DNA of 64,000 nt from Candidatus Krumholzibacteriia bacterium (GTDB lineage: Bacteria > Krumholzibacteriota > Krumholzibacteriia > LZORAL124-64-63): the NCBI GenBank assembly GCA_030592845.1, contig JAUVII010000001.1, positions 2,392 through 66,391 of the forward strand. Reading direction: 5' to 3'. The notes under the pieces were generated by a model. It searched no databases, was not told where the DNA came from, and was given only the letters and a program-made list of their open reading frames with translations. Shown piece by piece: positions 1 to 54,752 of the stretch. A program made the translations under genes and the position numbers. How positions within the stretch are numbered: the first letter of the stretch is position 1; each line of letters starts with the position of its first letter.

Positions 1-464
1 CGGCGCGGGCTGGCCACCAACGGATTTATCAGCAGGTTGAAAGACGCCACCACGTCCACCGCCGTCAGGGGAATCCCATCAGACCACCGCCAGGGGCGCA
101 GGTGATAGGTTACCGACATGCCGTCCGGAGCAATTTCCCAGCGCGCGGCGATCCGGGGATGGTAAAGAAGATCATCTCCCATCTCGGTCAACCCGTCGTG
201 CATTTCCGCGAAAACGAACCCCGCGGTGGTGGAAGTATAGATCAGGGGATTCAGGACTTCCGGATCCGTCGCCAGGGCAACCACGGCCGTCCCGCCCGGG
301 ACCGGCCGGGTATCCGGAGACCCGTCCGGATTTTGGGTTTGGCCGGCATCCTGACCGCACCCCACGGTCCCCAGAGCGGCCAATATCAACAAAAAGCGCT
401 GCAAGGACAAACGACAGCCGGAGGGCCGGACCAAACCGGTAACGCGGACTGAATTCCATGCCAT
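1..464 (-). CDS. ABC transporter substrate-binding lipoprotein, family 5 (peptide/nickel type); N-terminal part only, gene runs off the window start
   Basis: The frame is open on the minus strand from 464 to 1. It is missing from the ORF track because it has no stop in the window. Translation: MAWNSVRVTGLVRPSGCRLSLQRFLLILAALGTVGCGQD... then GGTAVVALATDPEVLNPLIYTSTTAGFVFAEMHDGLTEMGDDLLYHPRIAARWEIAPDGMSVTYHLRPWRWSDGIPLTAVDVVASFNLL. This is a typical SBP_bac_5 N-terminus with a lipobox-like signal. AAGGA RBS lies 8 nt upstream of the ATG at 464-462. Confidence 0.7.
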   Translation of the reverse strand, partial: MAWNSVRVTGLVRPSGCRLSLQRFLLILAALGTVGCGQDAGQTQNPDGSPDTRPVPGGTAVVALATDPEVLNPLIYTSTTAGFVFAEMHDGLTEMGDDLLYHPRIAARWEIAPDGMSVTYHLRPWRWSDGIPLTAVDVVASFNLLINPLVASPR

Positions 465-518: not shown

Positions 519-556
519 CCAAAAATAAAGGCGCAGCCCCGGGAGGAGCTGCGCCT
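519..556 (-). terminator. rho-independent terminator downstream of the gingipain-like gene and its C-terminal-domain ORF
   Basis: Perfect 9-bp stem AGGCGCAGC / GCTGCGCCT (529-537 and 548-556), 10-nt loop. On the minus strand it is followed by TTTATTTTTG. Confidence 0.7.
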
Positions 557-591: not shown

Positions 592-978
592 CTACTTCAC
601 GAGGGTCATCTTCTGAACCGAGACATCGCCCGCGTTCACGGCCCGCAGGAAATACATCCCGCTGGCCTGGCTCCGGCCGGTGTCATCCCTGCCGTCCCAG
701 ACCAGGGTGTGCCAACCGGCGGATATTCCGCCAGTGTGAAGCTTCCGGATCTTCCGGCCCTGCACATCATAGACCACCAGGTCGAGATCCGAAGACTGGG
801 GAATGTACAACCGGACCGTGGTCGAGGGGTTGAAGGGGTTCGGATACACCGAATTGACTGTGAAACCGGCCGCCGGGATATCGTCATTACCTTCCACCGG
901 CACGAGATAGATGGGGAACAAAAGCCCGTCCCGCCGGCTGCTGCCCCCGAACGTGGGCCAGGGAACATTTTTTCGATC
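592..978 (-). other. FlgD-Ig-like / T9SS-type C-terminal sorting domain. It is in frame with the upstream C25 peptidase gene and separated from it by a single TAA at 979-981. Either a detached C-terminal domain, a pseudogene fragment, or a sequencing error.
   Basis: Translation after the stop: DRKNVPWPTFGGSSRRDGL-LFPIYLVPVEGNDDIPAAGFTVNSVYPNPFNPSTTVRLYIPQSSDLDLVVYDVQGRKIRKLHTGGISAGWHTLVWDGRDDTGRSQASGMYFLRAVNAGDVSVQKMTLVK. It has the YPNPFNP...IYD..GR.VR.L..G....G.H...WDG.D..G...SG.Y pattern of the FlgD Ig-like/T9SS C-terminal domain. It is in the same frame as 979..5592 ((5592-921) is divisible by 3). The ORF track starts it at a TTG at 921. Confidence 0.6.
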
Positions 979-3900
979 TTAAGCGAATGGCATATCCCAG
1001 ACATGGATCAGGAAATCCCAGCCGCCGAATACGATGTCCACGTCGGAATCCGCATCCAGATCCGTGATAACGGCCGAGGGCATGAGAGGCCCGGCCAAAG
1101 TGATCGGAAAACCATCCACCAGGTCGCCGGTCGCATGATAGGCGTACAGGTTGTAGGGAGAACTTTCGTCCCCACCGCCGATACCGTGAATGATATCCGG
1201 GGAACTGTCGCCGTCGATATCGCCGACCACAGGGCTGCCTTCGGAACTGCCAGGCAGGGTCACGGGCCAGCCCGGAAGGACCTGACCGGAAGTGCCGCCG
1301 GAATGATCGGTATCCACCACGACGATACGGCTGACGAGACCGGACTGATTGGGCGTGTAGATGATTTCCAGCATACCGTCGCCGTCCATGTCGCCCAAGG
1401 CGGGACTGCTGACCCAGTCATGCACGGCGGTAAAGCCCATGTACACCGGGAAACCGGGATAGTTGGAGCCGTCTTCCCGGACTGCGTACAAATAGCGGGC
1501 GCTGTCGAAGAAGACGATTTCCAGTTGCCCGTTGTTGTCAAGGTCGCCCACGCACGGATCCACGGTGATGCCGGCGTTTGCCTGGTATGGGAATCCAGGT
1601 GCGTTGGTGCCGTCAAACTTCAGGGCCATCAATCGTTTGATGCCCGAGGCATCGTTTTTGGTCCCGAATATGATTTCCTTGGCGCCGTCGCCGTCAAGAT
1701 CGGCCAGGGCCGGTCCGCTGCGCGACCATTCCCACTGGGCTCCATCACGGACGTAGAAGGGGCCGTTGGTGCCGGGATCCGAATCCCCGTCCCTGACTTC
1801 GGTACCATCCGCGTGCCAGGCGAAGACAACGCCGTTCAGAGTATTGACCACGATTTCAGGTTCGCCATCCCCGTCAATGTCCCCCACCGCGGGTGTGGCC
1901 CAGTTCCACGAGGAGCCGATGGAACTGGTCAGGGCCTGGGGCCAACCGGCCAGTTCGGATCCATCCCTGGTGAAAATATGGATTTTTTTGCCCGGCGATG
2001 ATTCCGAGACAATCATTTCCAGACCGGCAATTTCATCCAGGTTGCCCAGGGCAACTCCGGCAGGTCCAAAAACATAGCCTGAGGGGAAATTCGTAAAGAC
2101 ACCCAAAGTCTGGGAGTCCCCATCCCCATCCAGAAGTTCCATGCCGTTGTGATGGAACACGTAGACCTGCTCACTGCTCAGGACGATTTCCTGGTCGCCG
2201 TCTCCATCCACATCGCCAACCGCCAGATGGCTGCTGGTTTCATTGGCGAAAGGAACCGGGAACCCGGTCAACTCCGCAGGTGCCGTGGATTGCGTCACCA
2301 TATCGGACAGGACGCTCGGCACACGGGACGAATCGACGGTCGCCACTTTGTAATAATAGCGCGTCAACTGGTCCAGGTTGTCATCCATGAAATAGGAGGT
2401 TCCCGCGATGACATCCTGGTTGACCCTCAGGAAGGGGCCGAATTCGTTGAGGCTTCGGTAGACATTGTAGCCGTACTTGTTGGGAGTCGCGGATGGATCC
2501 CATGAAAGGGAGATGACATCGGCTCCCAGAGAGGTGTCCGTGGTGATGTTCAGGGGTGCCATCGGACGCCAGGGACTGAAATCGTGGCTGAAGACGCGAC
2601 CGTGGTTGTCCACGAAATCGAAACGGCTTTCCACCGTCCCCAGGATATTGCCGACCGAGAGGGAATAGACCACACTGCCAGCCTTATCGTCCATCAGGTC
2701 GAGATCGATCCAGGTGGCCACCGAATCATAGATAACGACATTGAGATCATCGGAACGCAAATAGCCGGTGATGTTGTCCGCCATCCCGGCACCGAAATTT
2801 TTCAAACGGGCCGTGATGCGAATCCTCTCACCCATATCCAGCAGACCGTTACCGTTGCCGTAGGTTTGGTCTTCCCACTGCATGGAAACAACTTCCACTT
2901 CGGGAGCTTCCACCACAACCGACCACTTCGAGACGAAGTTGTTGGACCCGTCGGTAACATCCAGTTCAAAGGTGATTTTGGCGGCATCCCGGATGTTGGA
3001 ATGGAATTCCACCACAAAATGACTTTGGCCCACGGTGGAACCACCGGATCCCACAGCGGGGAACGTGGCGGTGTCCGTCAGGATGGTCACGGTGGTGTCC
3101 GCGCAGCTCAGAACGCCCGTCATACCCGACAATCCCGATCCGCCGGTTTCCAGAAGGCTGGCCAGCAGGGCGATGGTCTCCCCCGCTTCGACGGTCTGGT
3201 TACCGTTGCCCAGGCTTCCACTGGTCCCATTGTCGGTCACATCCATCGAGGAGAGGGCTGCAAAGCCCGCACCGGAGGTAACCGGTATCTGCTGGACCTG
3301 CATGACCAGGTTTTTACCCGTCACGGACACGGTCGCGTTTCCCATACTTGAGGGCAGGAAATCCAGGTCGACCTTGCCGGTGGCATCGGTCAACCCGTAG
3401 ACATGACTCTCGGTATCCTTGGCGATACAAACCAGAGCGTCTTCCACGGGGCTGCCGTCATCGGTAATCGTGAAACTGATCGTTTGGGGACCCAGATCCA
3501 GGCCGGAGGGTCCGGAAAGCACCACGGGTGAGGGACTCCCTGTCCAGATAGGCAGGGTGGGATCGCCCAGCAGGGTGTAGTTTTCGAAAGTCCACCGGTC
3601 CACATAGTTGGCGTCCGTCAGACCGATAAACGGCAGTCGGCTGAGGGCAATCAGCCTGCCGACGCGCATTTCACCGGTACAATACAGCAGATCAAAAAAT
3701 CCCTGCTGGTAATTGTTCGAGTTGTTGGGGAAGGCCGCCCTCACCGAACCGACGGAGCAGATGGCACCGCCGTCGGGATTCTGGATAAAGCGTTCCAGAA
3801 GACAGGAATTGTCAAAAGCGCCACTGGCACAGTTCAAGGCGTAGATCATGAACAGGTGATCGCCGTTGGTCAGTTGGTCGGCGTCGGTGGTCATGAAGTT

Positions 3901-5469
3901 CGCGTCGGCGACGGACATGTTGAAGTAATACCCGTGTCCGATCTGATTCACGATACCGTAATTGCCTGCATTCAAGGTATCGATCAGGGCCAGCCTGCTT
4001 AGCTGGGCCTCCATGGGATACAGGGTGTCGGTCTGGTACATCCTCGTGAATTCCATATCGGTACAGGGCTGGATGTAATCGTTGACCTGCTGATCAGAAT
4101 ACTGCGCGCCGTCGAGAATGATGTAGTCACCTTCGGGATAGTCCGAGGGGAACAGGACTTCGGCCGCAAAAAGGGCGCGATTGGCCCAATCAGCCGTGAC
4201 ATCGGCCGATTCATAGGAAATGACCTTGTTTACAAACACCGCCGCAGCGTCAGGAGTGCTGACCGTAGCCCGGCCGATATAGACTTCCTCGGCAAAATCG
4301 ACGAGGTCCCCCTCATTGCCGGTACTGGCAGGCTGGCCGAAATTGGCGTCCCCGTCGGCATTCCAGTTGCCATCGAGGCAGGCAAAATAGAGATCCACCG
4401 GGATGGAAGTATACCCGTTGGTGGGATAGAAGGAGTTGTCGATGTAACGCGGAGGCAATATGTCGGAGTCACCCGCCAGCAGGACATATTCAATACCCCA
4501 CTTCTGATAGGCGTCCAGAATATACATCCGGATGGTTTCCTGGATGTCGGCACCGTTGCGGTAATTGGCCCCGATGAATTCCCTGGTGGCCACGACCGTA
4601 GGCAAACCCAGTGACGTTTTGAAATCGGCCAGGACCTGGAACTGGGCGGCCATGTCTTCATTCGTGATGATCAGGTAGGTCACCCCACTGCCTTTGAGGC
4701 TCGGGGTCTGGTTGGGTTCGAAAGCCGCGGACTTGTCTTCGATTTCAAGGCCGTTTTCGCGGTTGTATCCGGAGATGACTTCGGGGTTGGCCACCAGATC
4801 GGCCAGCACACGGGCATTTTCCTGGGCTTCGCCGGGAATCAACCGTTGCCTGACGGCAATATCCCGCGGATCGCCAACTTTGCCGGTATCGAGACGGACG
4901 GCAAAACTGTCGAGGAACTCCAGTTCCACGCCGTTGTCGGTCTGGATTTCACGGACGGGATAAACACTGATTGTGACCAGACGGTAACCGCGCCAGACAT
5001 GGCTCCCGGTATAATCGCCCCAGGTGGCGGGAAATTCGGAACCCTCGCGGTTCATTTTGGTGTAGGTGACCATGTCCCCGGAATCGGTGAAATGGGGCGA
5101 GGCCAGGGCCAGGGGACTCCTGGGATACTCCCTGTGGGTGGCAAGGGGTTCGATCCACACCTGATCCACCGGAGTGTCGAGGGGTACCAGAAGAACCAGA
5201 TCACGGACCGGCAGTTGCGGAAGGCCCGGTTCATCCAGTCGACGGGTGCCGTCCAGCACAGGATACTGTATACCCTGGGGATCCGTTTCCCAGCGGAGGT
5301 CCTCCGCGCGGAAGCCGCCCTCATGGAGCACCTGACCGCCGGCGGCGGTTGCGCTACCGGGCGCCCACAAAAGTGATCCGGAAAGACACACGGAAAATAT
5401 CAGGGCAAAATGGACGAAGCGGAAGGATCGGATATTCAAACGAAGGGGGCGAACTCCGAAAACTGACAT
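979..5469 (-). CDS. secreted multidomain peptidase, family C25 (gingipain-like), with C-terminal FG-GAP/VCBS beta-propeller repeats
   Basis: Signal-peptide-like N-terminus from the ATG at 5469-5467 (MSVFGVRPLRLNIRSFRFVHFALIFSVCLSGSLLWAPGSATAAGG). C25 catalytic region: YLIITNEDMAAQF...YVLLAGDSDILPPRY...NGYTSIPVDLYFACLDGNWNADGD...IGHGYYFNMSV...LNCASGAFDN. At least 7 FG-GAP-like repeats: VGDVDGDGDQEIV, GDIDGDGEPEIVV, LADLDGDGAKEIIF, GDLDNNGQLEIVF, GDMDGDGMLEIIY, GDIDGDSSPDIIHG, TDLDADSDVDIVFG. The ORF ends at TAA 979-981. Confidence 0.85.
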   Translation of the reverse strand: MSVFGVRPLRLNIRSFRFVHFALIFSVCLSGSLLWAPGSATAAGGQVLHEGGFRAEDLRWETDPQGIQYPVLDGTRRLDEPGLPQLPVRDLVLLVPLDTPVDQVWIEPLATHREYPRSPLALASPHFTDSGDMVTYTKMNREGSEFPATWGDYTGSHVWRGYRLVTISVYPVREIQTDNGVELEFLDSFAVRLDTGKVGDPRDIAVRQRLIPGEAQENARVLADLVANPEVISGYNRENGLEIEDKSAAFEPNQTPSLKGSGVTYLIITNEDMAAQFQVLADFKTSLGLPTVVATREFIGANYRNGADIQETIRMYILDAYQKWGIEYVLLAGDSDILPPRYIDNSFYPTNGYTSIPVDLYFACLDGNWNADGDANFGQPASTGNEGDLVDFAEEVYIGRATVSTPDAAAVFVNKVISYESADVTADWANRALFAAEVLFPSDYPEGDYIILDGAQYSDQQVNDYIQPCTDMEFTRMYQTDTLYPMEAQLSRLALIDTLNAGNYGIVNQIGHGYYFNMSVADANFMTTDADQLTNGDHLFMIYALNCASGAFDNSCLLERFIQNPDGGAICSVGSVRAAFPNNSNNYQQGFFDLLYCTGEMRVGRLIALSRLPFIGLTDANYVDRWTFENYTLLGDPTLPIWTGSPSPVVLSGPSGLDLGPQTISFTITDDGSPVEDALVCIAKDTESHVYGLTDATGKVDLDFLPSSMGNATVSVTGKNLVMQVQQIPVTSGAGFAALSSMDVTDNGTSGSLGNGNQTVEAGETIALLASLLETGGSGLSGMTGVLSCADTTVTILTDTATFPAVGSGGSTVGQSHFVVEFHSNIRDAAKITFELDVTDGSNNFVSKWSVVVEAPEVEVVSMQWEDQTYGNGNGLLDMGERIRITARLKNFGAGMADNITGYLRSDDLNVVIYDSVATWIDLDLMDDKAGSVVYSLSVGNILGTVESRFDFVDNHGRVFSHDFSPWRPMAPLNITTDTSLGADVISLSWDPSATPNKYGYNVYRSLNEFGPFLRVNQDVIAGTSYFMDDNLDQLTRYYYKVATVDSSRVPSVLSDMVTQSTAPAELTGFPVPFANETSSHLAVGDVDGDGDQEIVLSSEQVYVFHHNGMELLDGDGDSQTLGVFTNFPSGYVFGPAGVALGNLDEIAGLEMIVSESSPGKKIHIFTRDGSELAGWPQALTSSIGSSWNWATPAVGDIDGDGEPEIVVNTLNGVVFAWHADGTEVRDGDSDPGTNGPFYVRDGAQWEWSRSGPALADLDGDGAKEIIFGTKNDASGIKRLMALKFDGTNAPGFPYQANAGITVDPCVGDLDNNGQLEIVFFDSARYLYAVREDGSNYPGFPVYMGFTAVHDWVSSPALGDMDGDGMLEIIYTPNQSGLVSRIVVVDTDHSGGTSGQVLPGWPVTLPGSSEGSPVVGDIDGDSSPDIIHGIGGGDESSPYNLYAYHATGDLVDGFPITLAGPLMPSAVITDLDADSDVDIVFGGWDFLIHVWDMPFA

Positions 5470-5952
5470 GCGGGGCCTCCAGATCGATCGGCATACGCAA
5501 CGGGGCGAATCCCAGCGCAGCCGGCGATTACACAAAAGTTGGCGAGGATCTGAACAGCGCTGTAACATCTGAACAATGAACCTCAGGGTCAAAATCTAAG
5601 ATGCCGAATCCTTTCCCTGGTCCGTGGAATCCCGAAAATTTCCGGACGATTCGGAAAAATATGGACCGTGGGAAATGTTGCACGTTAGCCTTGGCTGTTT
5701 GAGAAACCTCCAAAAAGCTTCTGGTGTGACCCTGAAACCGTGAAACGCATCGGAAAACACGTTTATGATTGACCAAAAAAACCGTACCCAACTGCTACGG
5801 AATTAGAAAATAACAATACCACAAACATAGCCATTGGTCAATGCCACAAAACCAATCCCCATTGGCATGAAATTGATTTAATCCTGCCATTTTACCTTTG
5901 TTTGGACAAACAAAAACCAGGGAGTTTTGATTTCACAAACGATAAAAGGTTG

Positions 5953-7314
5953 TTACGGAACAAGATCAAAGGTGGTCTGAGCCGGCAGAGCCACCAAAAC
6001 AGCTTCCGGGAAAGACCGCATATCACCGCGGGCCCCTGCCGCCCGGGCGAGAGCATTGCCGGGAACAGGCAGGATCCGTTTGCTCAATGTCGCGTTGCGC
6101 AGGATCACCAACCCGCCCTTGACTCTCCAACTGGTGCCGGACCTGTGGAGTTGCGCGATTTCATGATCCGTTAGAAAGACGGGAGAATTGTCCCGGTCGC
6201 CCGCAATCACACCCAGATATTGATCCAGGGCAGCCAGTCCCGTTTTCACCACCGACGTGTCGGTGTGGGCGAAATTAATCCGGTGGCTTTCAACAATGGC
6301 CGGTTCGCCCGCCGCCCAGGCCCGCCGGGTTTCGGCGACACAATGAAGGACCACCGCCCCCGGGTCCCGGGCCTGAACCGGTTCCAGACGGCAGTTTCGC
6401 TCCAGGTAGGTGCGGTCCGGATGGTGAAACCGATCCCAATGCCGGCCTATGTATTTACGCAGGCGACCGGATTTGCCCGACCCCCAATCGGCATTGATCT
6501 GTTCCCGTTTCCCCTGGATCACTCTCAAGTTACGGCTGCTCCACATATCTTCGATCCGGGCGTCCCAGTGGTAGTCGGGGGCAATAACCGATTGAACCTC
6601 ACGGCCGAAAAGTGATTCAAACCCCGCCAGGGATATGTCCAGATCATTCTCGAGATCCTGGATCCTGCGCCACGGCCCAAGTTCACGGGCGCGCTCACTT
6701 CCTGGAAACAGCATGATGTTCCGGCCCGTCACCGATTGGGCGAACTCACCATCAAGGGCGGCCTTTTTCCTCATGTCGGAATCGTAGTGCCAGGTTGCGT
6801 GGAATTCAGGATACCAGGTGCCACCGTTGATGCCCTCGGCCACCGCGTTCCAGAGGCCGGGCCGCTGGTACCCCGGGGGCAGATCCGGCAGATCATGACG
6901 GGCCCACTGATCATCCGCGTGGGAAAGGGAGGACATGACATAATTGGGTTGCAGCACGGCCGGATGTCCATCCCGCCCGAGGTGGGCCGCCAGAACCCGA
7001 TTGAGCCGGCCCACCATACTGCTGTCCTCAAGGGTGGAGAGCCAATAGACCTCGGGAAACGGGCCGGGATTCAGGCGCGTCCTGTCCAGATCACGCCAGG
7101 AATCACCGTGAGGTACAAAGCCGGCCAGACCCCAATCATCACTTTCGATGGCGATGGCTCTCAGCACCTGCCAGGAAACGGTACTGCGTGCTCCCCCGAA
7201 CAGGAAAGCGGCCCCGACCAATCCACAGACGAGAACAGCCAACGGAAGGACAATTTTGGAGGTCTGCTTCAATTTCCTGTTCCTTCCGCACCGGATATTG
7301 CCCGCGCCCACCAA
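5953..7314 (-). CDS. hypothetical protein with N-terminal membrane anchor, last gene of the polysaccharide cluster (possible polysaccharide-modifying enzyme; not recognised)
   Basis: 453-aa ORF. N-terminal TM (KIVLPLAVLVCGLVGAAFLF) followed by a large soluble domain (ESDDWGLAGFVPHGDSW...). Same strand as the upstream glycosyltransferase genes and overlaps them. Confidence 0.55.
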   Translation of the reverse strand: MVGAGNIRCGRNRKLKQTSKIVLPLAVLVCGLVGAAFLFGGARSTVSWQVLRAIAIESDDWGLAGFVPHGDSWRDLDRTRLNPGPFPEVYWLSTLEDSSMVGRLNRVLAAHLGRDGHPAVLQPNYVMSSLSHADDQWARHDLPDLPPGYQRPGLWNAVAEGINGGTWYPEFHATWHYDSDMRKKAALDGEFAQSVTGRNIMLFPGSERARELGPWRRIQDLENDLDISLAGFESLFGREVQSVIAPDYHWDARIEDMWSSRNLRVIQGKREQINADWGSGKSGRLRKYIGRHWDRFHHPDRTYLERNCRLEPVQARDPGAVVLHCVAETRRAWAAGEPAIVESHRINFAHTDTSVVKTGLAALDQYLGVIAGDRDNSPVFLTDHEIAQLHRSGTSWRVKGGLVILRNATLSKRILPVPGNALARAAGARGDMRSFPEAVLVALPAQTTFDLVP

Positions 7315-7946
7315 TAATGCCCGGGATCAAGACCATCGCGGCCGATGTTCCGCGCCAGGAGCGCGGTCTCTCCCCCGGCCGCAACGCCCGGGCCCAGCAT
7401 ATCCAAAACGGGCGCGGCCGCAATGGTATGACGATTACGAACCAGACCGAACTCCCAGACGGCCGCCTTTTGAAAAGACGAACTCCGGGTCTTGAATTCC
7501 TCGAGGGGGATCAGGGGGCCCCGGGATTCGGGCATCAGCCGGGCGAGAAAAGCCTGCAAATCACGGTAATTGATCTCACCCCGGGACGCCGTGCCTGGTT
7601 CATCCTCAAATATGAACAGGGAGCCTCCCGGTTTCAACAAATCCAGCCAGCGGCCCAAAAAAGAGAAATCGGCCAGGGCCGGAATCATGTGCCTCAGTAG
7701 ATTCGGAACCACCAATAGATCCAGCGATGCGGTCAACAACGGTGGGGAATCCGCCTCCCCGACGACATCGGCCACGGTCCCGCCCTGGGGATGGACCCGA
7801 TCCAGCCCCCAGGAGGTCACACCCAGATCAGACAGGGCGTCACGAAAACGCCCCGATCCACATCCGAGTTCCAATATCCGGGAAACAGGAAAATCCGCGT
7901 TGCGGCAGAAATCAGTGAAGATCTTTGGCAGGGGAGTGAATGACAT
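7269..7946 (-). CDS. class I SAM-dependent methyltransferase
   Basis: Motif I LELGCGSGRF; about 225 aa. Start chosen at MSFTPLPK. The ORF-track start at 7973 overlaps the WecA-like gene more. Confidence 0.7.
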   Translation of the reverse strand: MSFTPLPKIFTDFCRNADFPVSRILELGCGSGRFRDALSDLGVTSWGLDRVHPQGGTVADVVGEADSPPLLTASLDLLVVPNLLRHMIPALADFSFLGRWLDLLKPGGSLFIFEDEPGTASRGEINYRDLQAFLARLMPESRGPLIPLEEFKTRSSSFQKAAVWEFGLVRNRHTIAAAPVLDMLGPGVAAGGETALLARNIGRDGLDPGHYWWARAISGAEGTGN

Positions 7947-9189
7947 CCGGCCCTTCCTCCACCGCCGTTTCACTGCCCGAGGTCCCCTCCAGGATGATGT
8001 TCTTGGCCCGGGCCACCTTGGCCCGTTCGACCTGCAGGTCGATGATGTCGGCTACATTCTGGCCAACCTGTCCGGACAGCTTATCCAGACGGTCGTCAAA
8101 TCCCAGGGCATAGAAAAGTTCGGTGAACAGATCGAGACCGTGCTTGCGATTCTCCAGGTGACGCAGGGCGCCCAGTTGGCCGGCCCACATCCAGACACCC
8201 ATCGCGGGCAAGCCCAGCCAGGCCTGACCCAAGAAGTCGCTGAGGGCAAAAAGGGTGGTCCCGATGGTCACCAGCAACAGGCAGAAGACCGCGCCTGCCG
8301 GCGAGAAACCCAGGCGCAGCAGCCGGTGATGAAGATGAAAATCATCGGCGAGAAAAATGGAAGATCGCCGGCGGTAACGGCGGACGATCGTGGTCCCGGT
8401 ATCCCAAATGGGAACAATCATCGGAGCAATCATCACCGGAAGGCTGATGGGAACCTTCTGGCTCAGGTTCAGCAACAGACTGGCCAGGACCAGGCCCATC
8501 CACATACTGCCCGAATCACCCAGGAAAATCTTCCGTTTGCTGATGTTCCAATAGAAAAAAGCCACCGTGGCGCCACAGAGGGTGGCGGCAAAAAGGGTGG
8601 AGAACATTTCGCCGACGGCCAGGGAAATAACCATCAGGGCAATGGAGGCGACAATGCTGATACCGCTGGCCAAACCGTCCAGGCCATCGATGAGATTCAT
8701 GGAGTTGATGAATCCCAGGTACCAGAACAGGGTAAAGGGCCAGGCCCAGCCCCCCAGTTCAATGGAGCCCACGAGGGGCAGATAAACGGTGTCGAGGCGT
8801 TGGCCGAAAAGCATCAGCCCGACAATGACCAGGAGTTGGCCGTAGAGCTTTTTCTCGGCGTGGATCCCAAAGCGGTCATCTCCCACGCCAAGGGCGAGAA
8901 TGCAGACACCGGCGCCGATCAGGATACTCAGCCACGACCAGGGCAGCGCGGTGCGCAAAATAACATTTTCCAGGAAAAACAGGGCACAGAAGAAGGAAAT
9001 GAAGATGGCCATGCCGCCGGTTCGGGGCACGGGTTCACGATGAGGACGGCGGTAACCGGGGTGATCGACGATTTCCGTCAAAAAACCCAGGTTCCTGAAA
9101 TGGGGCTGGACCAACCATGACATCAGGAATGCCGCAGTAAAGCCAAGTGCTGCTACAATCCCCAGGTCCACGATTCCTCCTTGAAGCAT
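7912..9189 (-). CDS. MraY/WecA-family polyprenyl-phosphate sugar-1-phosphate transferase (initiating glycosyltransferase, GT4) with about 90-aa C-terminal cytoplasmic extension
   Basis: Multi-TM protein. It has a PRTGGMAIF N-terminal motif and NLIDGLDGLASG and FLGDSGS motifs. Confidence 0.85.
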   Translation of the reverse strand: MLQGGIVDLGIVAALGFTAAFLMSWLVQPHFRNLGFLTEIVDHPGYRRPHREPVPRTGGMAIFISFFCALFFLENVILRTALPWSWLSILIGAGVCILALGVGDDRFGIHAEKKLYGQLLVIVGLMLFGQRLDTVYLPLVGSIELGGWAWPFTLFWYLGFINSMNLIDGLDGLASGISIVASIALMVISLAVGEMFSTLFAATLCGATVAFFYWNISKRKIFLGDSGSMWMGLVLASLLLNLSQKVPISLPVMIAPMIVPIWDTGTTIVRRYRRRSSIFLADDFHLHHRLLRLGFSPAGAVFCLLLVTIGTTLFALSDFLGQAWLGLPAMGVWMWAGQLGALRHLENRKHGLDLFTELFYALGFDDRLDKLSGQVGQNVADIIDLQVERAKVARAKNIILEGTSGSETAVEEGPDVIHSPAKDLH

Positions 9190-9249
9190 CCCTGATTCCG
9201 GTATCTTTCAATCCGATTGCAATTTATTCAACAGAAGCAAATTACAGCA

Positions 9250-10434
9250 TCAGGTTCCGGTGGGCAATCCTTTTTTATTTTGATCAATATCAAGCAATTC
9301 GCGGTAAACAGCAACCGTTAGCTCAGCAGTTCGGCTCCAGGACAATTCCCGGGCCCGGACACGTCCCCCGGCGGACAGTTTATTTCGCAGATCCCCGTCG
9401 AAGGCCAGGCGGGCCAAACCAGCGGCGATTTCCTCCGGGTTTTCCGGGTCTACCAGGAGGGCTTCCCCGGCCGCTACTTCGGCGGTTCCACCCCTGTCAG
9501 AGGTCAGGACAGGAATTCCCGCCGCCATCGCCTCGAGGACGGGCAGCCCGAACCCTTCATCCAGACTTGGGAAAACAAGGGCCCTGGCACCGCAATAGTA
9601 ACCCCACAGTTCGTCGAGATCGCAGTAGTCAACCATTTTGAGCCTGCCCCGGCCCTTCAGGCCCGCCACCCTTTCCCGCAACCGGGATTCTTTCCAACCC
9701 CGGCCACCGACAAGGACCAGGTCAGGCAGGGAATCGACAGGCATTCCCCGGGCCGTGTCACCAGACAGGAAAGAATCATAGGCGTCCAGAAGACGGGTCA
9801 GGTTCTTCCGCGGCTCAAGGGTGCCGACAAACAGAAAATAGGGACGGACAGACCCTCGACCCGGAAGCACCTCCGGGCACGACCGATCCCCGACCCACCG
9901 TGGCGTACCGTGCAGGGTCACGTGGATTTTTCCGGCTGCAGCCGGAAAAAAGTCCGCAGTACGCGAGGCCGTGGACCGGCTGTTGGCCACAATGGCATCC
10001 ACCTTGGCCAGGCTGCGGGGCACGAGAAACCTGTAATAGCTGAGACGCGGTTCCCCGATCGTTTCAGGGTAAAGAAGCCAGGCCAGATCGTGCACCGTGG
10101 CCACCTGTGGAATGGAACATCGCAACGGTACGAGGAACTGCATGCTGTGCAGGAGATCCCCTCCCAATCTCCTGACCAGACCTGGCAGTTGGAACTGGGT
10201 GAACCACGCTTTCCGGAAGGCTCCGCCCCTCGCCCGCGGACACTCGATAATCCGCCAGTTGGCCCGGCCTTCCAGATCCTTGAACATATCCCGTCCGGTG
10301 GTCAGGACAGAAAAATCCAGACCCCGATCCTGATCGGCAAGGGCGGCGCACAGGTCCAGAATTCCCCGGCCTGTCCCGGTGGGATTCGACCTGACTTGAA
10401 GGGCCTCCAGGATGATTTGGGGACGACTGGTCAT
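9250..10434 (-). CDS. glycosyltransferase family 1 (GT4-type)
   Basis: EGFGLPVLEAMAAGIPVLTSD motif typical of GT1/GT4 retaining glycosyltransferases. Confidence 0.85.
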   Translation of the reverse strand: MTSRPQIILEALQVRSNPTGTGRGILDLCAALADQDRGLDFSVLTTGRDMFKDLEGRANWRIIECPRARGGAFRKAWFTQFQLPGLVRRLGGDLLHSMQFLVPLRCSIPQVATVHDLAWLLYPETIGEPRLSYYRFLVPRSLAKVDAIVANSRSTASRTADFFPAAAGKIHVTLHGTPRWVGDRSCPEVLPGRGSVRPYFLFVGTLEPRKNLTRLLDAYDSFLSGDTARGMPVDSLPDLVLVGGRGWKESRLRERVAGLKGRGRLKMVDYCDLDELWGYYCGARALVFPSLDEGFGLPVLEAMAAGIPVLTSDRGGTAEVAAGEALLVDPENPEEIAAGLARLAFDGDLRNKLSAGGRVRARELSWSRTAELTVAVYRELLDIDQNKKGLPTGT

Positions 10435-11885
10435 GACTCCGATTCCCCTGTCATCAGGAATTCCGTATCAGCCAGGAGAGCCATCATCAAACCCAACGAC
10501 ACCCAGATGTGCGGCAGGTTGTACTGCGAGAAGGTCAGGAGTTGGAACCAGACGCCCACCCCGGAGATGGTGACCGCCAACAGGAGGCGACCCTGCAAAC
10601 GGCCGGATTGTCCGGAGAGCGGCCCGGACGGGAACAGTTCAGCCCAACGCCTCCGGATCCCCCTGAGCAGCCCCGCGGCCCAGCCGAGAAAAACGAGAAA
10701 ACCCACCAGCCCCGTCTCACAAAGAACAAGCAGGGGAAAATTGTTGACCACCGGCCAGGTGAATTGGCTTTGAAGCCCCATGGGGTCAACCAGGACCGGA
10801 AAATGCCACCCGAATTGGCCCCACCCGATTCCCAGGACCGGGCTCAGCAAAAAAGCGCGCCACGCGGCCTGCATACTGTAGAGGCGGGTCAGATTGGACC
10901 AGTCGTGGCTGCTGAAGGTCTGGTACAACCGGCGGAAGGGAAACAGCGCGCCTTCCCAGCCTGCGGCAAGACCCACCAGGGGAACCGCCACCAACAGGAC
11001 AGTCAAACCCGCGACCATCAGTTTGGCTTTCCGCGCCTCGAACCCGAACATCTCCCGACGGGAATTTCCTGGAAGGGAGAATACCAGAACCAGGGCCAGT
11101 ACCACCTGTCCCATGAAACCGAGCCAGGCGCCACGAGACCAGGTGGCCCACAAAAGGATCAGCAGGGAACCGCCCAGCCATTGTCTGGTCCGAACCGACA
11201 AAAATGGAACAAGGGTGAAAGGCCACAGGAAAAGAAGAAAATTACCCAGGTACAGGGGTTCGCAAATCGTTCCGCGAAGGCGGGGCACGTGGCGAAAGGA
11301 ATCCCCCAGGTAAAGTTCAACCGACCCTGACAGGATGGAGGGGTTGGAAGTGAAAACGCCGTCCAGCCAGACGTAGCCCACAAGAGGATTGAAAAAATTG
11401 ATGCCTTGAAAAAGACTGTAGACAACCTGGAAGGAACCTCCAAGCAGCAGGAGTTTTACGGTCCAACTCCAACGTCTGGCGCCGCGAGTCCACCAGGCCG
11501 GCCAGAGGGCAAAAACAGCCATGACACACAATTGCACCACTTGTTTAATGAACCGCCCCAGCGTTTCGGCCAACGGCTCGGCGGAGGGCGCCAGCCACAG
11601 CCCGGCAAGTGAGAACAGGACGCTGGCCAGGACAGCGCCGACACCCACCAGCCACCAGCGCTGTATCCCGGGCCGAAACAGATCACGCAATCCGGGCGGG
11701 GTCTTTCCCTGGCGCAGGAATTCCAACATCCGACACAGGACCGCGATCGCCAGAAACGCCCAGGAAGGCTGAAGTCCCCCGCCCACATCCCTTCCCGTGG
11801 AAAGTTTCAGAACACCCACGCCGGCCCAGGGCAGGGTTACCAAAGCGGCCCCATAGAAGAAGGTGGCGCAACGGGCCAGCATCAC
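10431..11885 (-). CDS. O-antigen ligase / Wzy_C family polymerase-like membrane protein
   Basis: About 12 predicted TM helices. GIGWGQFGWHF loop motif characteristic of the Wzy_C / WaaL family. 4-bp overlap with the GT1 gene. Confidence 0.75.
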   Translation of the reverse strand: MMLARCATFFYGAALVTLPWAGVGVLKLSTGRDVGGGLQPSWAFLAIAVLCRMLEFLRQGKTPPGLRDLFRPGIQRWWLVGVGAVLASVLFSLAGLWLAPSAEPLAETLGRFIKQVVQLCVMAVFALWPAWWTRGARRWSWTVKLLLLGGSFQVVYSLFQGINFFNPLVGYVWLDGVFTSNPSILSGSVELYLGDSFRHVPRLRGTICEPLYLGNFLLFLWPFTLVPFLSVRTRQWLGGSLLILLWATWSRGAWLGFMGQVVLALVLVFSLPGNSRREMFGFEARKAKLMVAGLTVLLVAVPLVGLAAGWEGALFPFRRLYQTFSSHDWSNLTRLYSMQAAWRAFLLSPVLGIGWGQFGWHFPVLVDPMGLQSQFTWPVVNNFPLLVLCETGLVGFLVFLGWAAGLLRGIRRRWAELFPSGPLSGQSGRLQGRLLLAVTISGVGVWFQLLTFSQYNLPHIWVSLGLMMALLADTEFLMTGESES

Positions 11886-12463
11886 AACCTCGACCTCTCG
11901 TCAGATTTCAACCGGGCACGCCGCAGCAGAACGATGATCATGAGAGTCATGCCCGCCAACAGAAGAAGCCCCGACTTGAAGTCCGAGCCACCGGCCGCCG
12001 GTCGGCGATAACGGATCATGGCGCCGCGGATCTCCAGTTCCCCACCGGTCATCCGCAACTCGATCAAGCCGTCGGCCAAGACAAGAGGTTCCGATACCGG
12101 GAATATCCCATCCTGGAAAAGCAGCTGCCCACTGGAACCGGAACCTTCCAGAAATTCGGTACAGGCAAACCCGATGTCCCGTCTGCCGAAATCCTCGACC
12201 GGAAAGGAAGCGGGAATGATGAGGAGACCCTCTTCCCATCTCAAGGTCCTGAAGCCGGGGATGGCGTCGGTTTCCCAAACAAACCCGGAAACCGAATCCC
12301 TGACGGCTTCGATAACCACATAACCCTGCTGGCCCAGGCGCTGGTTTTGATCGGGCTGCCCCTGAGCATGGCCGCAGGGAACAAACAGTACCAGGCAAAC
12401 CAACCCACCCAACCAGCCGCATGGCCGTAAACGGTTTATCAAATCATGAATCGGGGTCAACAT
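11882..12463 (-). CDS. hypothetical exported protein with C-terminal TM anchor
   Basis: ATG at 12463. Signal-like RLRPCGWLGGLVCLVLFVPCGHAQG. C-terminal hydrophobic segment LLLLAGMTLMIIVLL followed by RRARLK. 4-bp overlap with the ligase gene. Confidence 0.5.
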   Translation of the reverse strand: MLTPIHDLINRLRPCGWLGGLVCLVLFVPCGHAQGQPDQNQRLGQQGYVVIEAVRDSVSGFVWETDAIPGFRTLRWEEGLLIIPASFPVEDFGRRDIGFACTEFLEGSGSSGQLLFQDGIFPVSEPLVLADGLIELRMTGGELEIRGAMIRYRRPAAGGSDFKSGLLLLAGMTLMIIVLLRRARLKSDERSRL

Positions 12464-13308
12464 TTAGCCCGGCCCGCAATCATGGCCCCCACCACCCGGC
12501 ACCACAGGGAATCCTCCTGGCCGGCCCTGGAAAAACCGGCCGCCAGATTATCCTCCCCCGCCACCTGGTGGACCCCCACGGGGATCCCGTCGCAGGATTT
12601 TTCCGCCAACCTGACGATGCGCGCCAGATCGCTCGAATCGTACCGAAGGGCAGCAATAGTGCAGATTTCATCGAGCCAACCGGGCTGACCGGCGGACGAC
12701 CAGGCATTGGGGAACAACAGGATTTCAATACGGTCGGGCCTGACCACTTCGGCCAGCCGGCCCAGGTAATAGTTTGGTCCGAATTGTCCGGCTTCATCCT
12801 CCTGCAGGCACCAGACCAGACCGCCGGAACCGTTGCCGGGAAGAAGTCCTGCAGTCCGAACTGCCGCCAGTGATTCCAGGTGGGCCATTTCTGTCCTGCC
12901 TACACACCCCAGGTGATTCCACTGAATTCCCCGGGCCGGGGCCGCCTCCGGCTGGGCGGCGGAATTCCGGCCGCGCTTTTCCGCGGCAATGGTCCAGGTG
13001 TTCCGGTGGTCCCCATCCTCCCCTGCAAAAACCCGACCGTGGCCGCCCTCACTGATGAGAAATGTGCCGGCGGACCAACGAATCCGGTTGTCCTCCACGA
13101 GGGTGGAAGATCCCGATGAACCGAGAGCCAATCCAGCCGCCGCAAACGCGGAAATGGCCGCGCCACCCGGCGCGGCCACGGCGCATTGGCAAATATCCCG
13201 GGTGGAATCCCCCACAATTCCGGGACGACTTTCCTCAAGGAAAAGATGAGCTATGGATGAAATATGGTGGGGCCGTTTGGGAACGGCCCCGGAATCGGTT
13301 CGCGCCAT
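12457..13308 (-). CDS. hypothetical protein
   Basis: Co-directional with the cluster. GGAGAA RBS 8 nt upstream of ATG (MARTDSG...). No recognised motif. Competing plus-strand ORFs are antisense in a high-GC region. Confidence 0.4.
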   Translation of the reverse strand: MARTDSGAVPKRPHHISSIAHLFLEESRPGIVGDSTRDICQCAVAAPGGAAISAFAAAGLALGSSGSSTLVEDNRIRWSAGTFLISEGGHGRVFAGEDGDHRNTWTIAAEKRGRNSAAQPEAAPARGIQWNHLGCVGRTEMAHLESLAAVRTAGLLPGNGSGGLVWCLQEDEAGQFGPNYYLGRLAEVVRPDRIEILLFPNAWSSAGQPGWLDEICTIAALRYDSSDLARIVRLAEKSCDGIPVGVHQVAGEDNLAAGFSRAGQEDSLWCRVVGAMIAGRAKC

Positions 13309-13396: not shown

Positions 13397-14470
13397 TCAG
13401 GTGACGACAACCAAGCTGTTGGCTCCGCCGAACTCATTGGGTACCGTCCGGCTGTTGTGGGGATCCGGCAGCCAGGAACCGTCGACAATGAAACGGTACT
13501 CGTGCTGGCCATGGGCAAGATCCAGATGACATTCCCACATGCCGTCCTCGCGCTTGCTCAGGGGCAGCCCCTTGGCGGACCAGTCACAGAACGATCCGGT
13601 GATTCTCACTGTTCGGGCCCGGGGGAAATCCGCTTCGAAACGAACTCCGGCCTCGGAAACGGCCGGCCCATGCAGGAGAGCTGTCCAGTGATCCAGTGCA
13701 ACCACTTCCAGGGCCACTTCCTGGTCGATCAGTTCCCGGGCAAGTTGCCTGAAATCGAAGGCGGCACGGGATTCCGGATCAAGCTTCGCTACGGGAATTC
13801 CCGCCCCCGCCGCCTCCTTGACCTTCACGGTATGATGGATGACGGTGTCCAGGAGGTCGCCGTCGTACAATTCCTCCAACTCCTCCATGACCTTCCTGAC
13901 AAAGAGGGGCCGGGTGTCGAAATTCGACATCAGGATGTGGGGAATGACATCGTGGCCCTTCTTTTCCCGCAGAACCGACAGGGTTTCCCGCATCTTGCGA
14001 ACAGCCTGCAGGCTGTAACCGCTGGGATCCACGGGAATGATGACCTCGCCGCAGGCCAACAGGGCATTGAAGGTCAGCAGGCTCACGCTGGGAGGGCAGT
14101 CGATCAGGATGTAATCGTAGGGCAGCGAACTGCGGCGAAGGTTGTTCCGCAGGCGCATCTCCTTTTCCGGCTCCCGGGCCAGGGTCATTTCCACACCACT
14201 GAGTTCGATGCCGGCCGGAACCAGGTGCAAACCGGGGCCGGCTTCCAGGAAGGCGTCCTCGACCAGGATGTCCGAGGTCAGGAACAGATCATGGGTGCTG
14301 AGGGTGAAATCCCGTTCGTGGAAACCGCAGGCCAATGTGGCGTGGCCCTGGGGATCGTTGTCGATGAGAAGGACTTTTTTTCCGATTTGGGCCAGAGTTG
14401 AGGCAAGGTTGGTGGCGGTTGTCGTTTTACCGCATCCGCCTTTCTGGTTGGCCAGAGCAACGACTCTCAT
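13397..14470 (-). CDS. ParA/MinD-family P-loop ATPase fused to a C-terminal AMPK-beta-type glycogen-binding domain (CBM48)
   Basis: N-terminus MRVVALANQKGGCGKTTTATNLA (deviant Walker A) and IDCPPS. C-terminal about 85 aa RTVRITGSFCDWSAKGLPLSKREDGMWECHLDLAHGQHEYRFIVDGSWLPDPHN...GGANSLVVV. This matches the AMPK beta GBD pattern GSFNNWS..PL....F...L.LP.GEH.YKF.VDG.W..DP. Confidence 0.8.
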   Translation of the reverse strand: MRVVALANQKGGCGKTTTATNLASTLAQIGKKVLLIDNDPQGHATLACGFHERDFTLSTHDLFLTSDILVEDAFLEAGPGLHLVPAGIELSGVEMTLAREPEKEMRLRNNLRRSSLPYDYILIDCPPSVSLLTFNALLACGEVIIPVDPSGYSLQAVRKMRETLSVLREKKGHDVIPHILMSNFDTRPLFVRKVMEELEELYDGDLLDTVIHHTVKVKEAAGAGIPVAKLDPESRAAFDFRQLARELIDQEVALEVVALDHWTALLHGPAVSEAGVRFEADFPRARTVRITGSFCDWSAKGLPLSKREDGMWECHLDLAHGQHEYRFIVDGSWLPDPHNSRTVPNEFGGANSLVVVT

Positions 14471-29728: not shown

Positions 29729-30526
29729 TTACCCCGCTGGCCGGATGTTCAATCTGAGCAGAGACTCCAGAACCCCGCCGCCCACCGCTAGGGCCTTGTC
29801 ACTCACCAGATCCGGGTCAATGGCGGCGCCCCGGGGATCCACATCTCCAACCTTGGTTCCCGCGGAAAGTTCCGCCGTCGGATGGACCAGTCCACGAATC
29901 CTCCCGGTCAGGCCACTGACCACCGGAATTCCCGAGACATGGCCCAGAATCATCCCTTCCTCCACCAAATCGCCAATTTCATATAGGGATGTAAACTGCC
30001 CCGCCGCGGGAGCTTTGAGAACCCTCAGTCCCGATTGCCCGCCCACCAGACCGGCAACCCCGGTATTCGGCGCGGCCGCCCCCTGGGAAATGACCTCCCC
30101 CAACCTGGCTTCGCGATGGGTTTCCACGATCAGGTCGGCATCACGGCCACAAAAAAAGCCGGGACCCAGTCCGATTACCGGAATTTTCCCTGTGGGCAGG
30201 GGATCAGGGGCCTTTTTGGTCATGCGGGCGTCAACGACCGCACCGGCGCCCAGACGCGACAGGACAGACCCACGGTCATCCACCACCACGGACACCAGGC
30301 CGGGCCGGTAACGGCACGCGGCCGGTTCGACCAGTTCACCGACGATGCCTTCGACCAGGTGGCGGCCGGTATAGACCGCCTCGCTGAAAGACACCCGCCG
30401 CCGAACGGCCAACGGTCTGGCCGTTTCAGCCAGCACCACCCGGTAACCTGACCTCACCAGCCGGACCGCCACCCCCGAAGCGAGTTCGCCGGCCCCCTGG
30501 ATCCAGATGCAACCTTCAGTATTCAC
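29729..30526 (-). CDS. yqeB: selenium-dependent molybdenum hydroxylase system protein YqeB
   Basis: N-terminus IQGAGELASGVAVRLVRSGYRVVLAE (YqeB-type Rossmann-like start). About 265 aa. Translationally coupled (4-bp overlap) to the XdhC-like gene. Confidence 0.7.
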   Translation of the reverse strand: MNTEGCIWIQGAGELASGVAVRLVRSGYRVVLAETARPLAVRRRVSFSEAVYTGRHLVEGIVGELVEPAACRYRPGLVSVVVDDRGSVLSRLGAGAVVDARMTKKAPDPLPTGKIPVIGLGPGFFCGRDADLIVETHREARLGEVISQGAAAPNTGVAGLVGGQSGLRVLKAPAAGQFTSLYEIGDLVEEGMILGHVSGIPVVSGLTGRIRGLVHPTAELSAGTKVGDVDPRGAAIDPDLVSDKALAVGGGVLESLLRLNIRPAG

Positions 30527-34916: not shown

Positions 34917-34958
34917 TCGGCGCGAAAATTGCCGGGTCGAACGAGCAACCGCTTTCGG

Positions 34959-36653
<1,695 letters not shown>

Positions 36654-36679
36654 TCATGCAAATTCTTGGGTTCCGGTAA

Positions 36680-36970
36680 CTAGCCCAGGATGGCCAGCAC
36701 ATCGCTCTCGCGCAGGATCAGGAAGTCGTCCCCGCCCACGTTCACTTCGGTGCCGGAATACTTTCCGTACAGAACGATGTCGCCCTTCTTGACTTCGGGG
36801 GCGATCCGTTCGCCGTTATCACTGGTGGTACCGGGACCCACGGCCACGATTTTACCCTGCTGGGGCTTTTCCTTGGCGGTATCGGGGATGATGATCCCGC
36901 CCTTCATGGTCTCCTGCTCCATGGGAGCCACGATGACACGGTCGGCCAGAGGCTTGATATTGAGAGCCAT
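36680..36970 (-). CDS. groS: co-chaperonin GroES (Cpn10)
   Basis: [56 protein letters not shown]. Confidence 0.97.
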
Positions 36971-37063
36971 CCTTTATCCTCCATTCATGCTGGTTGAACC
37001 AGCGTTCATATTAACGGTCGAAACTGCGTTGGCAGTCTCGACCCTTGATTGCCAATGGATGCG

Positions 37064-37091
37064 AAATATAGACCATCCACCAGGACCTGCA
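37064..37091 (-). promoter_or_regulatory. candidate sigma-70-type groESL promoter: -35 TTGCAG, 16-bp spacer, -10 TATATT
   Basis: Minus-strand reading: TTGCAG-gtcctggtggatggtc-TATATT about 95 nt upstream of the groES ATG. The leader contains GGTCGA..TCGACC and GCTGGTTCAACCAGC inverted repeats. Confidence 0.4.
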
Positions 37092-37141
37092 AGGAAATTA
37101 GGGATAAAGACCGGAGAAAATGAATTAGACTGGCAGACCTG

Positions 37142-37929
37142 TCAGTTTGACAGGAAACCTGGGGTATTTGACAGGATCACCCCGCCACGCAAGGTCCAGT
37201 GGGGGTCGTGATAACTGCCGGGTATGTCAAGATGAAGCCCCAGACCGCCTGTTACGACCACCGGCACCTCACCATAGCGGGCCTTCAGGCCGGAAACCAC
37301 CGCATGAACCCCTCCGAGTCCCGCGTGCCAGGCCCCGGCAGCCATGGCTGCCCCGGTATCCCGACCCACATCCCAGGACGCGGAACGGAAAGGCACAGGA
37401 TTCAGCCGGGCGGCAACTTCACCGATCCGACGGGCCGCCAACGCCATTCCCGGAGCAATCATCCCGCCCCTGAAAACGCCATCCAGCAGTAGATCGAATG
37501 TGGTGGCGGTGCCGGCGTCCACGACCAGGGCGCTCTTAAGACCGGAAAACGCGGCGGCGGCCATGTTGCACAGCCGGTCGGGACCCACCTGCGAGATATC
37601 GGCAATATCATGGGTAAAGGGAAGATCGCGGGTGTGGTCCACCACTTCCAGATCCGGCTCACCGGCCAGCAGGTCCACGATCCCCGGAATGACGGAGATC
37701 ATGACCACGCGGGGGGACCCGGATTTTCGGACAAGTTCCCGGAACGACTCCCGAAACCCGTCATTGCCCCCGGGACCGGAGGGATGGGAAAGCTCGACCA
37801 GTTCCCGCAACGGGACAGGAGGCGCCAGCTCGGATCCGCCCTTGGCCGACAAAACGGGCAGCTGTCCGTCACCTTCCCAGGCCGCACATTTAACGCGGGT
37901 GTTTCCGGCATCAACTATCAGGGCTTGCA
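37142..37929 (-). CDS. coaX: type III pantothenate kinase
   Basis: MQALIVDAGNTRVK N-terminus. ALVVDAGTATTFD. GGM. C-terminal VVTGGL. Confidence 0.85.
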
Positions 37930-53170: not shown

Positions 53171-53788
53171 TTACGGCCAGACGATTCCGGCACCCACCAG
53201 CACCGACCAAGTACGGTAGGTGCGGCCTGCATTGATCATCCAGCGGTACTGCCCCTTCAGGAAAAACATATGGGTGGGTTTGAAAAACCATTCCTGACCC
53301 GCCTCGGCCAGAATGGACCAGTGATCCCCACCGGCAATGTCATGGGCATCGGGACGCTTGATTTCGCTGATGCCCGAACCGATCCCGAGGAAGATATTAA
53401 CCTCGGTTTTTCGGTCACCGCGATTATTGAAGTAGCGTCTCAGGATGAGATCGAGCGAAGTGATGTCACCGCCATCGGGGACTTTCAGGAAATCGACCTG
53501 GACGACCATTCCCGTGGTCCAATTCCACAGCCCGTCGAAGATATTGATAGGTGAACCGGGGCGGAAGATAATGGCGCCCCCGTATCCCCAGTCCCCGGAT
53601 TGCTTCAGGAACCCGCCCCCGTATGCCCCATGTCCCGTCAGGAAAACAGGATTCTCAAAGGGCTCATTCAGGTGGGAGTTGGGAAGTTCCAGACGCGAAT
53701 TACCCTCCGTCAACTGGGCCGTTGCAGGGGTGGACAGGACCAAGGCAAAGGCCCAGGCAAGCCCCAACGGGACGAACCAGGAATCCAT
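53171..53788 (-). CDS. outer-membrane beta-barrel protein (OmpW/OmpA-barrel-like)
   Basis: Signal peptide MDSWFVPLGLAWAFALVLSTPATAQ. Alternating amphipathic strands. Aromatic-rich C-terminus. Confidence 0.55.
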   Translation of the reverse strand: MDSWFVPLGLAWAFALVLSTPATAQLTEGNSRLELPNSHLNEPFENPVFLTGHGAYGGGFLKQSGDWGYGGAIIFRPGSPINIFDGLWNWTTGMVVQVDFLKVPDGGDITSLDLILRRYFNNRGDRKTEVNIFLGIGSGISEIKRPDAHDIAGGDHWSILAEAGQEWFFKPTHMFFLKGQYRWMINAGRTYRTWSVLVGAGIVWP

Positions 53789-54706: not shown

Positions 54707-54717
54707 TCTCCATGCCA

Positions 54718-54752
54718 ATAAAAAAAAGGGCCCCGGTGCCACCGGAGCCCTT
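54718..54752 (-). terminator. rho-independent terminator of the sigma-factor gene
   Basis: Minus-strand reading: AAGGGCTCCGGTGGCACCGGGGCCC hairpin followed by TTTTTTTT. Confidence 0.7.

Follow-up and report, generated by a model that had tools for sequence, protein, structure and literature searches.

The 64,000-nt stretch of Candidatus Krumholzibacteriia DNA analysed here, referred to below as the window, carries on its minus strand a gene for a large C25-type (gingipain-family) peptidase, the reading frame of which is closed by one in-frame TAA in front of the C-terminal domain (CTD) that serves as a type IX secretion system (T9SS) sorting tag. The region is a single gene that differs from its homologues at one codon, where a conserved Tyr codon is replaced by a stop found in no homologue or locus examined, and the CTD encoded downstream of that stop is intact and under constraint. 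The best explanation, held with moderate confidence, is that the base call is real and that the window contains a very recent TAY→TAA nonsense allele. The lesion is in any case an ordinary one, i.e. a recent nonsense mutation or a base-call error, and not a new mechanism.

All coordinates given here are positions in the window. According to the map of open reading frames (ORFs) and the sequence, the C25-type ORF opens at 5592, has its likeliest start at ATG 5469 and closes with ...WDMPFA-TAA at 979-981. The frame stays open past this TAA for a further 128 sense codons (978-595) and ends with TAG at 592-594. The gene body encodes a signal peptide, a pro/N-terminal region, the C25 catalytic domain, an Ig-like/Fn3-like middle region and an FG-GAP propeller, the final strand of which (...FLIHVWDMPF) stops right before the TAA. 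The product started at ATG 5469 is predicted to begin with a Sec signal peptide, as judged from a positive n-region, a hydrophobic core and an AxA-like site. A database protein of 1496 aa (P0001), encoded on one 80,107-bp NCBI contig, is 100 % identical to the gene body.

The concatenated translation, with X at the stop, was used as the query in a homologue search. More than 100 orthologues of 1600-1630 aa were returned, with 50-86 % identity and 97-100 % query coverage, and the FlgD_ig tail is contiguous with the rest of the protein in all of them. Those with a named source come mostly from Candidatus Krumholzibacteria or Krumholzibacteriota, and their annotations read 'C25 family cysteine peptidase', 'VCBS repeat-containing protein' or 'T9SS type A sorting domain-containing protein'. 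The closest relative (P0002, 86 % identity) has 1625 aa, i.e. 1496 + 1 + 128.

In the codon alignment the window reads GCT TAA GAT where its two nearest relatives, L001 and L002, read GCA TAC GAC and GCC TAT GAC, respectively. Of the 117 homologues aligned at the corresponding column, 89 have Tyr, 18 Phe, nine His and one Ile, and the column is located inside the highly conserved stretch HVWDMPFA-Y-DRxxVPWPTFxGN; downstream of it W is present at +7 in 118 of 119 homologues and T at +9 in 115 of 119. A degenerate DNA pattern encoding WDMPFA-TAN-D-R, and therefore able to catch TAA or TAG too, was used in two scans, one of the GTDB species-representative genomes (14 matches) and one of the Joint Genome Institute (JGI) metagenome contigs (8 matches). 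The codon was TAC or TAT at all 22 loci. A stop at the site of Tyr1497 was thus encountered in none of the 117 aligned proteins or 22 DNA loci.

The codons downstream of the TAA have been conserved as in an intact gene. The ratio of nonsynonymous to synonymous substitution rates (dN/dS, Nei-Gojobori method) over the 128 downstream codons was 0.145 for the window compared with L001 and 0.117 for the window compared with L002, next to 0.151 for the intact pair L001 and L002 and approximately 0.10-0.12 for the upstream part. For the 85-codon sorting domain alone, values of 0.10-0.13 were obtained in comparisons with the relatives. Window-specific changes 3' of the stop comprise nine synonymous and six nonsynonymous ones, none of them in the core motifs of the CTD, and neither indels nor further stops occur within the 128 codons. 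With no trace of relaxed constraint visible, the lesion must have arisen very recently or else not be real.

An earlier reading of this DNA, made from the sequence only, had described a C25 peptidase gene whose sorting domain is cut off by one in-frame TAA, and the ORF map together with Pfam and NCBIfam profiles bore this out. The domain searches that it had proposed were run and supported both assignments. In the 1496-aa part Peptidase_C25 (PF01364) scored 204.1 bits against a gathering score of 23 (E 5e-60, profile positions 1-373 of 374), FG-GAP_3 scored 77.6 bits against 26.9 (E 1e-21) and FG-GAP 41.4 against 22.1. In the 128-aa downstream part FlgD_ig was found with 39.3 bits against 27 (E 6.7e-10), Por_Secre_tail (PF18962) with 28.2 bits at a cut-off of 27, and the NCBIfam model of the T9SS type-A sorting domain, TIGR04183, with 41.6 bits at a cut-off of 23. 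A family-specific hidden Markov model (HMM) of the CTD matched with an E value of 1e-47 and found only one such domain in the window. In a phmmer alignment to gingipain R (1cvr, 4ief), His512 (GHG) and Cys547 (NCASG) stand opposite the GHG and ACVNG of RgpB, and each of these two catalytic residues is present in 118 of 120 homologues. By its profile match and its His/Cys dyad the predicted product belongs to peptidase family C25 (Pfam PF01364 / MEROPS C25). A T9SS cargo carries the CTD on the same polypeptide as the Sec signal peptide; more than 100 orthologues, 1600-1630 aa long, show this contiguity, and in the window the TAA at 979-981 separates the two.

Two structural details of the same reading were also checked. 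The seven blades that it had ascribed to the propeller had to be revised, as there are eight repeats, seven with clear DxDxDG-type motifs and one degenerate, and the structure model has eight strand groups; the propeller is therefore probably 8-bladed. Its placement of the rho-independent terminator only 3' of the sorting domain held: a terminator scan of the minus strand revealed a hairpin at 556-529 with a 12-bp stem (nine G-C pairs) followed by a T-tract, and no terminator-like hairpin between 978 and 595, i.e. between the two stops.

According to the favoured explanation, a gene encoding in order a Sec signal peptide, the C25 peptidase, the Ig-like middle region, the FG-GAP propeller, a linker and the T9SS type-A CTD would have had its Tyr1497 codon (TAC or TAT) converted to TAA by one third-position transversion. 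The change would be very recent because everything downstream is intact. If the base is real, translation would end at UAA, a tight stop that each of the two release factors recognises. The 1496-aa product would retain the signal peptide, the catalytic His/Cys dyad and all propeller strands and would be carried by Sec to the periplasm, but devoid of the CTD it would neither pass the outer membrane by the type IX route nor become anchored. The result would be a natural delta-CTD loss-of-function allele, i.e. a variant within the population or a pseudogene in the making. Through basal misreading of the UAA, tRNA-Tyr would allow the wild-type protein to be remade, at trace level only, and the 109-aa downstream ORF would be a by-product of gene calling caused by the stop and not a functional gene.

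The fate of the truncated product was considered with the help of an AlphaFold model of the last 601 residues of P0002, a part over which it shares 90 % identity with the window protein. In this model (mean predicted local distance difference test score, pLDDT, 76) the last propeller strand spans residues 463-472 and is followed directly by the Tyr at 473; confidence is low at 479-483 and 493-523, which cover part of the conserved motif and the linker, and the beta-sandwich of the CTD extends from 526 to 599. The best Foldseek matches of the propeller model were the propellers of integrin alpha, CRTAC1 and Bap1. In the model the stop falls immediately behind the final strand of the propeller, so that the truncated product should retain every propeller strand, and the conserved YDR..WPTFGG..RDG motif would be missing from it together with the linker and the sorting domain. 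RgpB of Porphyromonas gingivalis, the member of the family that has been studied best, accumulates in the periplasm when deprived of its CTD, and loss of just two C-terminal residues prevents its export (PMC5445135, section 10; PMC4560394, abstract). By analogy, Sec export of the 1496-aa product would be expected, and its secretion and anchoring by the T9SS would not.

Several points weigh against a real nonsense allele with these consequences. The species is sampled once in the collections searched and the A at 979 has no independent confirmation; the window sequence itself is absent from the 22 scan loci, the best nucleotide identity of any locus to the window being 83 %. A fully intact downstream domain is equally expected from a base-call or consensus error. 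General Pfam scans of the window ORFs recognised no T9SS components among the genes of the 64-kb window, and the proposed export route was deduced solely from the family to which the CTD belongs. Searching the literature for Krumholzibacteria combined with type IX secretion returned nothing.

The sequence-only reading had offered four explanations for the stop, namely a sequencing or assembly error, a recent nonsense mutation, stop readthrough and a split two-gene arrangement, and had called for a comparison of orthologues. In this comparison the stop proved not to be conserved, and since the nearest relatives have a Tyr codon (TAC or TAT) and no relative examined has a stop at this position, only the first two remain; readthrough and the split arrangement found no support. 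An artefact of sequencing, polishing or consensus building, in which the true codon is TAC or TAT, the protein is a normal one of 1625 aa and the TAA is a wrong base or a minority-strain variant, is a serious possibility, although not the probable one. It would account for a stop that no other homologue or locus examined shares, for an ancestral codon just one base away and for 128 flawless, constrained codons downstream; moreover, a metagenome-assembled genome (MAG) with a 1-nt deletion in a G-run of the same gene (L009) shows that lesions, perhaps technical ones, do arise in its assemblies. Substitution errors in an assembly consensus are, however, in general rarer than real nonsense polymorphisms. 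Full-length coverage of Pfam profiles was used as a check for other in-frame stops, and approximately 45 other ORFs of the window all gave full-length matches. The assembly is therefore locally clean, with a low error rate, which modestly favours a real substitution or population variant over a consensus error. Two codon-usage scans made for the same purpose were swamped by shadow ORFs of the 60 % G+C sequence. The motifs flanking the stop do not help the artefact either, CTTAAG (three copies against 4.5 expected) and GATC (460 copies, about one per 140 bp) being neither rare nor informative, and a special methylation or restriction motif at the stop was accordingly dropped as a candidate.

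All readings other than a real nonsense allele or an artefact are unlikely even when taken together. The one in which a real TAA is functionally read through by a near-cognate tRNA-Tyr, tRNA-Gln or tRNA-Lys or by a suppressor tRNA, giving a useful amount of the full-length exportable protease from a gene turned down and not off, is improbable. The body and the CTD lie on one transcription unit with the terminator only behind the CTD, the CTD is intact, and the ancestral residue would come back if tRNA-Tyr misread the third position. However, the stop is conserved in no relative examined, no tRNA gene lies within the window, the neighbouring genes end normally at TAA, and for the 131 nt that surround and follow the stop the predicted folding is not better than that of shuffled sequences (z = +0.41 for the minimum free energy). 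The stop is moreover a UAA followed by G, which according to work in E. coli is among the most efficient termination contexts in bacteria. Still less probable is a split arrangement, in which the 109-aa protein would be made separately from TTG 921 and act as a sorting or adaptor module in trans. This ORF is called as a gene in the source record (P0121), and a table footnote in PMC5445135 lists small CTD-only ORFs devoid of a signal peptide in the P. gingivalis genome, but the 109-aa protein likewise has no signal peptide and would have no access to the periplasm, where CTDs act. No motif resembling a Shine-Dalgarno sequence precedes TTG 921, the start falls well inside a contiguous segment that is conserved (the linker), and all orthologues are fused; the sole cluster mate of the 109-aa ORF at 90 % identity is the C-terminal piece of a full-length gene interrupted by a scaffold gap. 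Reassignment or ambiguity of TAA in this lineage, i.e. an alternative genetic code, has nothing in its favour but the one in-frame TAA and is effectively refuted. TAA is a genuine stop here, because the adjacent gene at 5953-7314 (453 aa) closes with TAA exactly at the C-terminus of its orthologues, where these have TGA, and because 11 of 40 long ORFs in the window end with TAA; the relatives, in addition, use Tyr codons at the site.

One apparent split of the gene at another locus, L025, turned out to be a scaffold gap filled with Ns and not a mutation. The deletion in L009 (L009:1796-2400; JBDLKA010000058.1, Candidatus Krumholzibacteriota MAG120) removes one nucleotide from a G-run (window TTCGGGGGCAGC, L009 TTCGGGGCAGC) approximately 10 codons 3' of the Tyr codon replaced by TAA in the window, and the complete CTD continues there in another frame. 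This second lesion, independent of the first, may be a true frameshift or an error made in sequencing the homopolymer. A speculative and improbable suggestion is that lesions uncoupling the CTD, such as this deletion and the TAA of the window, recur because surface display is switched off in natural populations by selection or by slippage. If so, avoidance of phages or predators or 'cheating' on a public good could be the driver, and trace readthrough restoring Tyr would keep up a minimal supply. With about 25 loci, however, two lesions are too few to be called a pattern, and both may be technical.

The recent nonsense allele, still the favoured reading, concerns a protein that was compared with several known systems. 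Among the Krumholzibacteria C25/T9SS proteins (MCK9996953.1, i.e. P0004, as well as P0002, P0016 and P0047) architecture and length are as in the window gene, but these relatives have a sense codon for Tyr (or Phe or His) at the site and TAA is found in the window copy only. Gingipain R (RgpB, family C25) shares with it a Sec signal peptide, a caspase-like C25 domain with a His/Cys dyad, an Ig-like domain following it and a T9SS CTD. The similarity is nevertheless distant (phmmer E 3e-7), the protein has approximately 1600 aa against approximately 730 aa of RgpB and comes from Krumholzibacteria and not Bacteroidota, and its large FG-GAP propeller is absent from gingipains. The T9SS sortase PorU, which combines a C25-type catalytic domain with a retained type-A CTD, also has no FG-GAP propeller. 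Identity with PorU was rejected, as the model NF033707 gave 78.8 bits against a cut-off of 420; pieces of the window protein match positions 361-732 and 1000-1075 of the model, and the rest of it is unmatched. With integrin-alpha-type propellers (integrin alpha-V, CRTAC1 and Vibrio cholerae Bap1) the propeller shares its fold (Foldseek E of about 1e-10) and motifs resembling DxDxDG calcium loops, although at 10-15 % identity, with probably eight and not seven repeats, and in fusion with a protease and a bacterial sorting domain. The features of the gene and its surroundings are collected in Table 1.

Table 1. Positions of the peptidase gene, its parts and adjacent features in the 64,000-nt window
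Feature	Position	Strand	Basis
Gene body, 1496 codons, ATG 5469 to the last sense codon ahead of TAA	982..5469	-	ORF list, translation
Shine-Dalgarno-like GGAGG, 9 nt 5' of ATG 5469, in CTGGAGGCCCCGC-ATG	5476..5480	-	Upstream sequence
Predicted Sec-type signal peptide, residues ~1-43, MSVFGVRPLRLNIRSFRFVHFALIFSVCLSGSLLWAPGSATA/AGG	5341..5469	-	Read from the sequence
Peptidase_C25 (gingipain-family) catalytic domain, residues 265-640	3550..4677	-	Pfam PF01364
Codons of catalytic His512 and Cys547	3934..3936 and 3829..3831	-	Alignment to gingipain R
FG-GAP beta-propeller, residues ~1070-1496	982..2262	-	Pfam FG-GAP_3 and FG-GAP, DxDxDG motifs
Premature TAA at the conserved Tyr1497 codon	979..981	-	Codon alignment; 979 is the third codon base
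Continuation, part 1 (43 codons): conserved motif DRKNVPWPTFGGSSRRDG, then variable linker	850..978	-	Translation
Continuation, part 2 (85 codons): T9SS type-A sorting domain (FlgD_ig / Por_Secre_tail beta-sandwich)	595..849	-	TIGR04183, FlgD_ig
TAG, ancestral (true) stop of the gene	592..594	-	Identical codon at identical position in L001 and L002
TTG-initiated ORF of 109 aa, separate gene P0121 in the source record	592..921	-	Exact look-up: same 80,107-bp contig only
Intrinsic-terminator-like hairpin and T-tract 3' of the CTD	519..556	-	Stem 556-529, tail TTATTTTTGG
Next gene (ATG 464), lipoprotein-like SBP_bac_5 peptide-binding protein, continues beyond the window	1..464	-	Translation

The neighbourhood of the gene is as in the nearest relatives, with Wzy_C, GT4, Glycos_transf_4, a methyltransferase and the 453-aa protein upstream and the SBP_bac_5 lipoprotein downstream. 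The last of these assignments is likely, as the gene is collinear with the L001 gene at 11009-12697, annotated as PF00496. The conserved segments (window 5953-11885 and 1-464, shared with L001 and L002) comprise a Wzy_C protein resembling O-antigen ligases/polymerases and the 453-aa protein, for which no Pfam match was found. This neighbourhood of genes for cell-surface glycans and for a peptide-binding protein may link the surface protease to glycan anchoring and peptide uptake.

Two further observations concern the protein family. Two paralogues with 58 and 52 % identity to the query (P0042 and P0102) are encoded on the same 4,723,482-bp contig, JADJQR010000001.1, representing one near-complete genome, and the family can therefore be multi-copy. 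A protein of 1914 aa from a 6654-bp JGI contig (P0012) retains WDMPFAYDRRYVPWPTFGGNSKRDG, which is followed by approximately 330 extra residues, with Fn3-like and dockerin-like stretches as judged by eye, and then by a different type-A CTD. Since the motif stays beside the propeller despite the added domains, it is part of the propeller module, and domains can be inserted into the linker.

Elsewhere in the window, a ParA/MinD-type ATPase (AAA_31, CbiA, BcsQ-like) encoded at 13397-14470 on the minus strand carries at its C-terminus a fused glycogen-binding module (AMPK1_CBM/CBM48), an unusual combination of domains, and adjoins polysaccharide genes. A stand-alone FG-GAP repeat protein of 279 aa is encoded at 52181-53020 on the minus strand and has no CTD according to the family-specific HMM. 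The ORFs at 34929-36683 and 36690-37211 on the plus strand and at 29729-30526 and 53171-54742 on the minus strand gave no Pfam match at E ≤ 1e-3. GATC is over-represented in the window, its 460 copies comparing with 380 ± 17 in dinucleotide-preserving shuffles, none of which reached 460.

For annotation, the two calls of the source record (1496 and 109 aa) are best united into a single gene that is marked as having an internal stop, or put right should the reads contradict the stop. Throughout the phylum the family, in which a C25 peptidase is combined with an FG-GAP propeller and a T9SS tag, is conserved; public databases already list it, and it is experimentally untouched. If the stop is real, the population would carry a natural allele that lacks the CTD of an uncharacterised, conserved surface protease of Krumholzibacteria, and the allele would add a minor piece of evidence on the loss of genes among uncultured bacteria of the FCB (Fibrobacteres-Chlorobi-Bacteroidetes) group.

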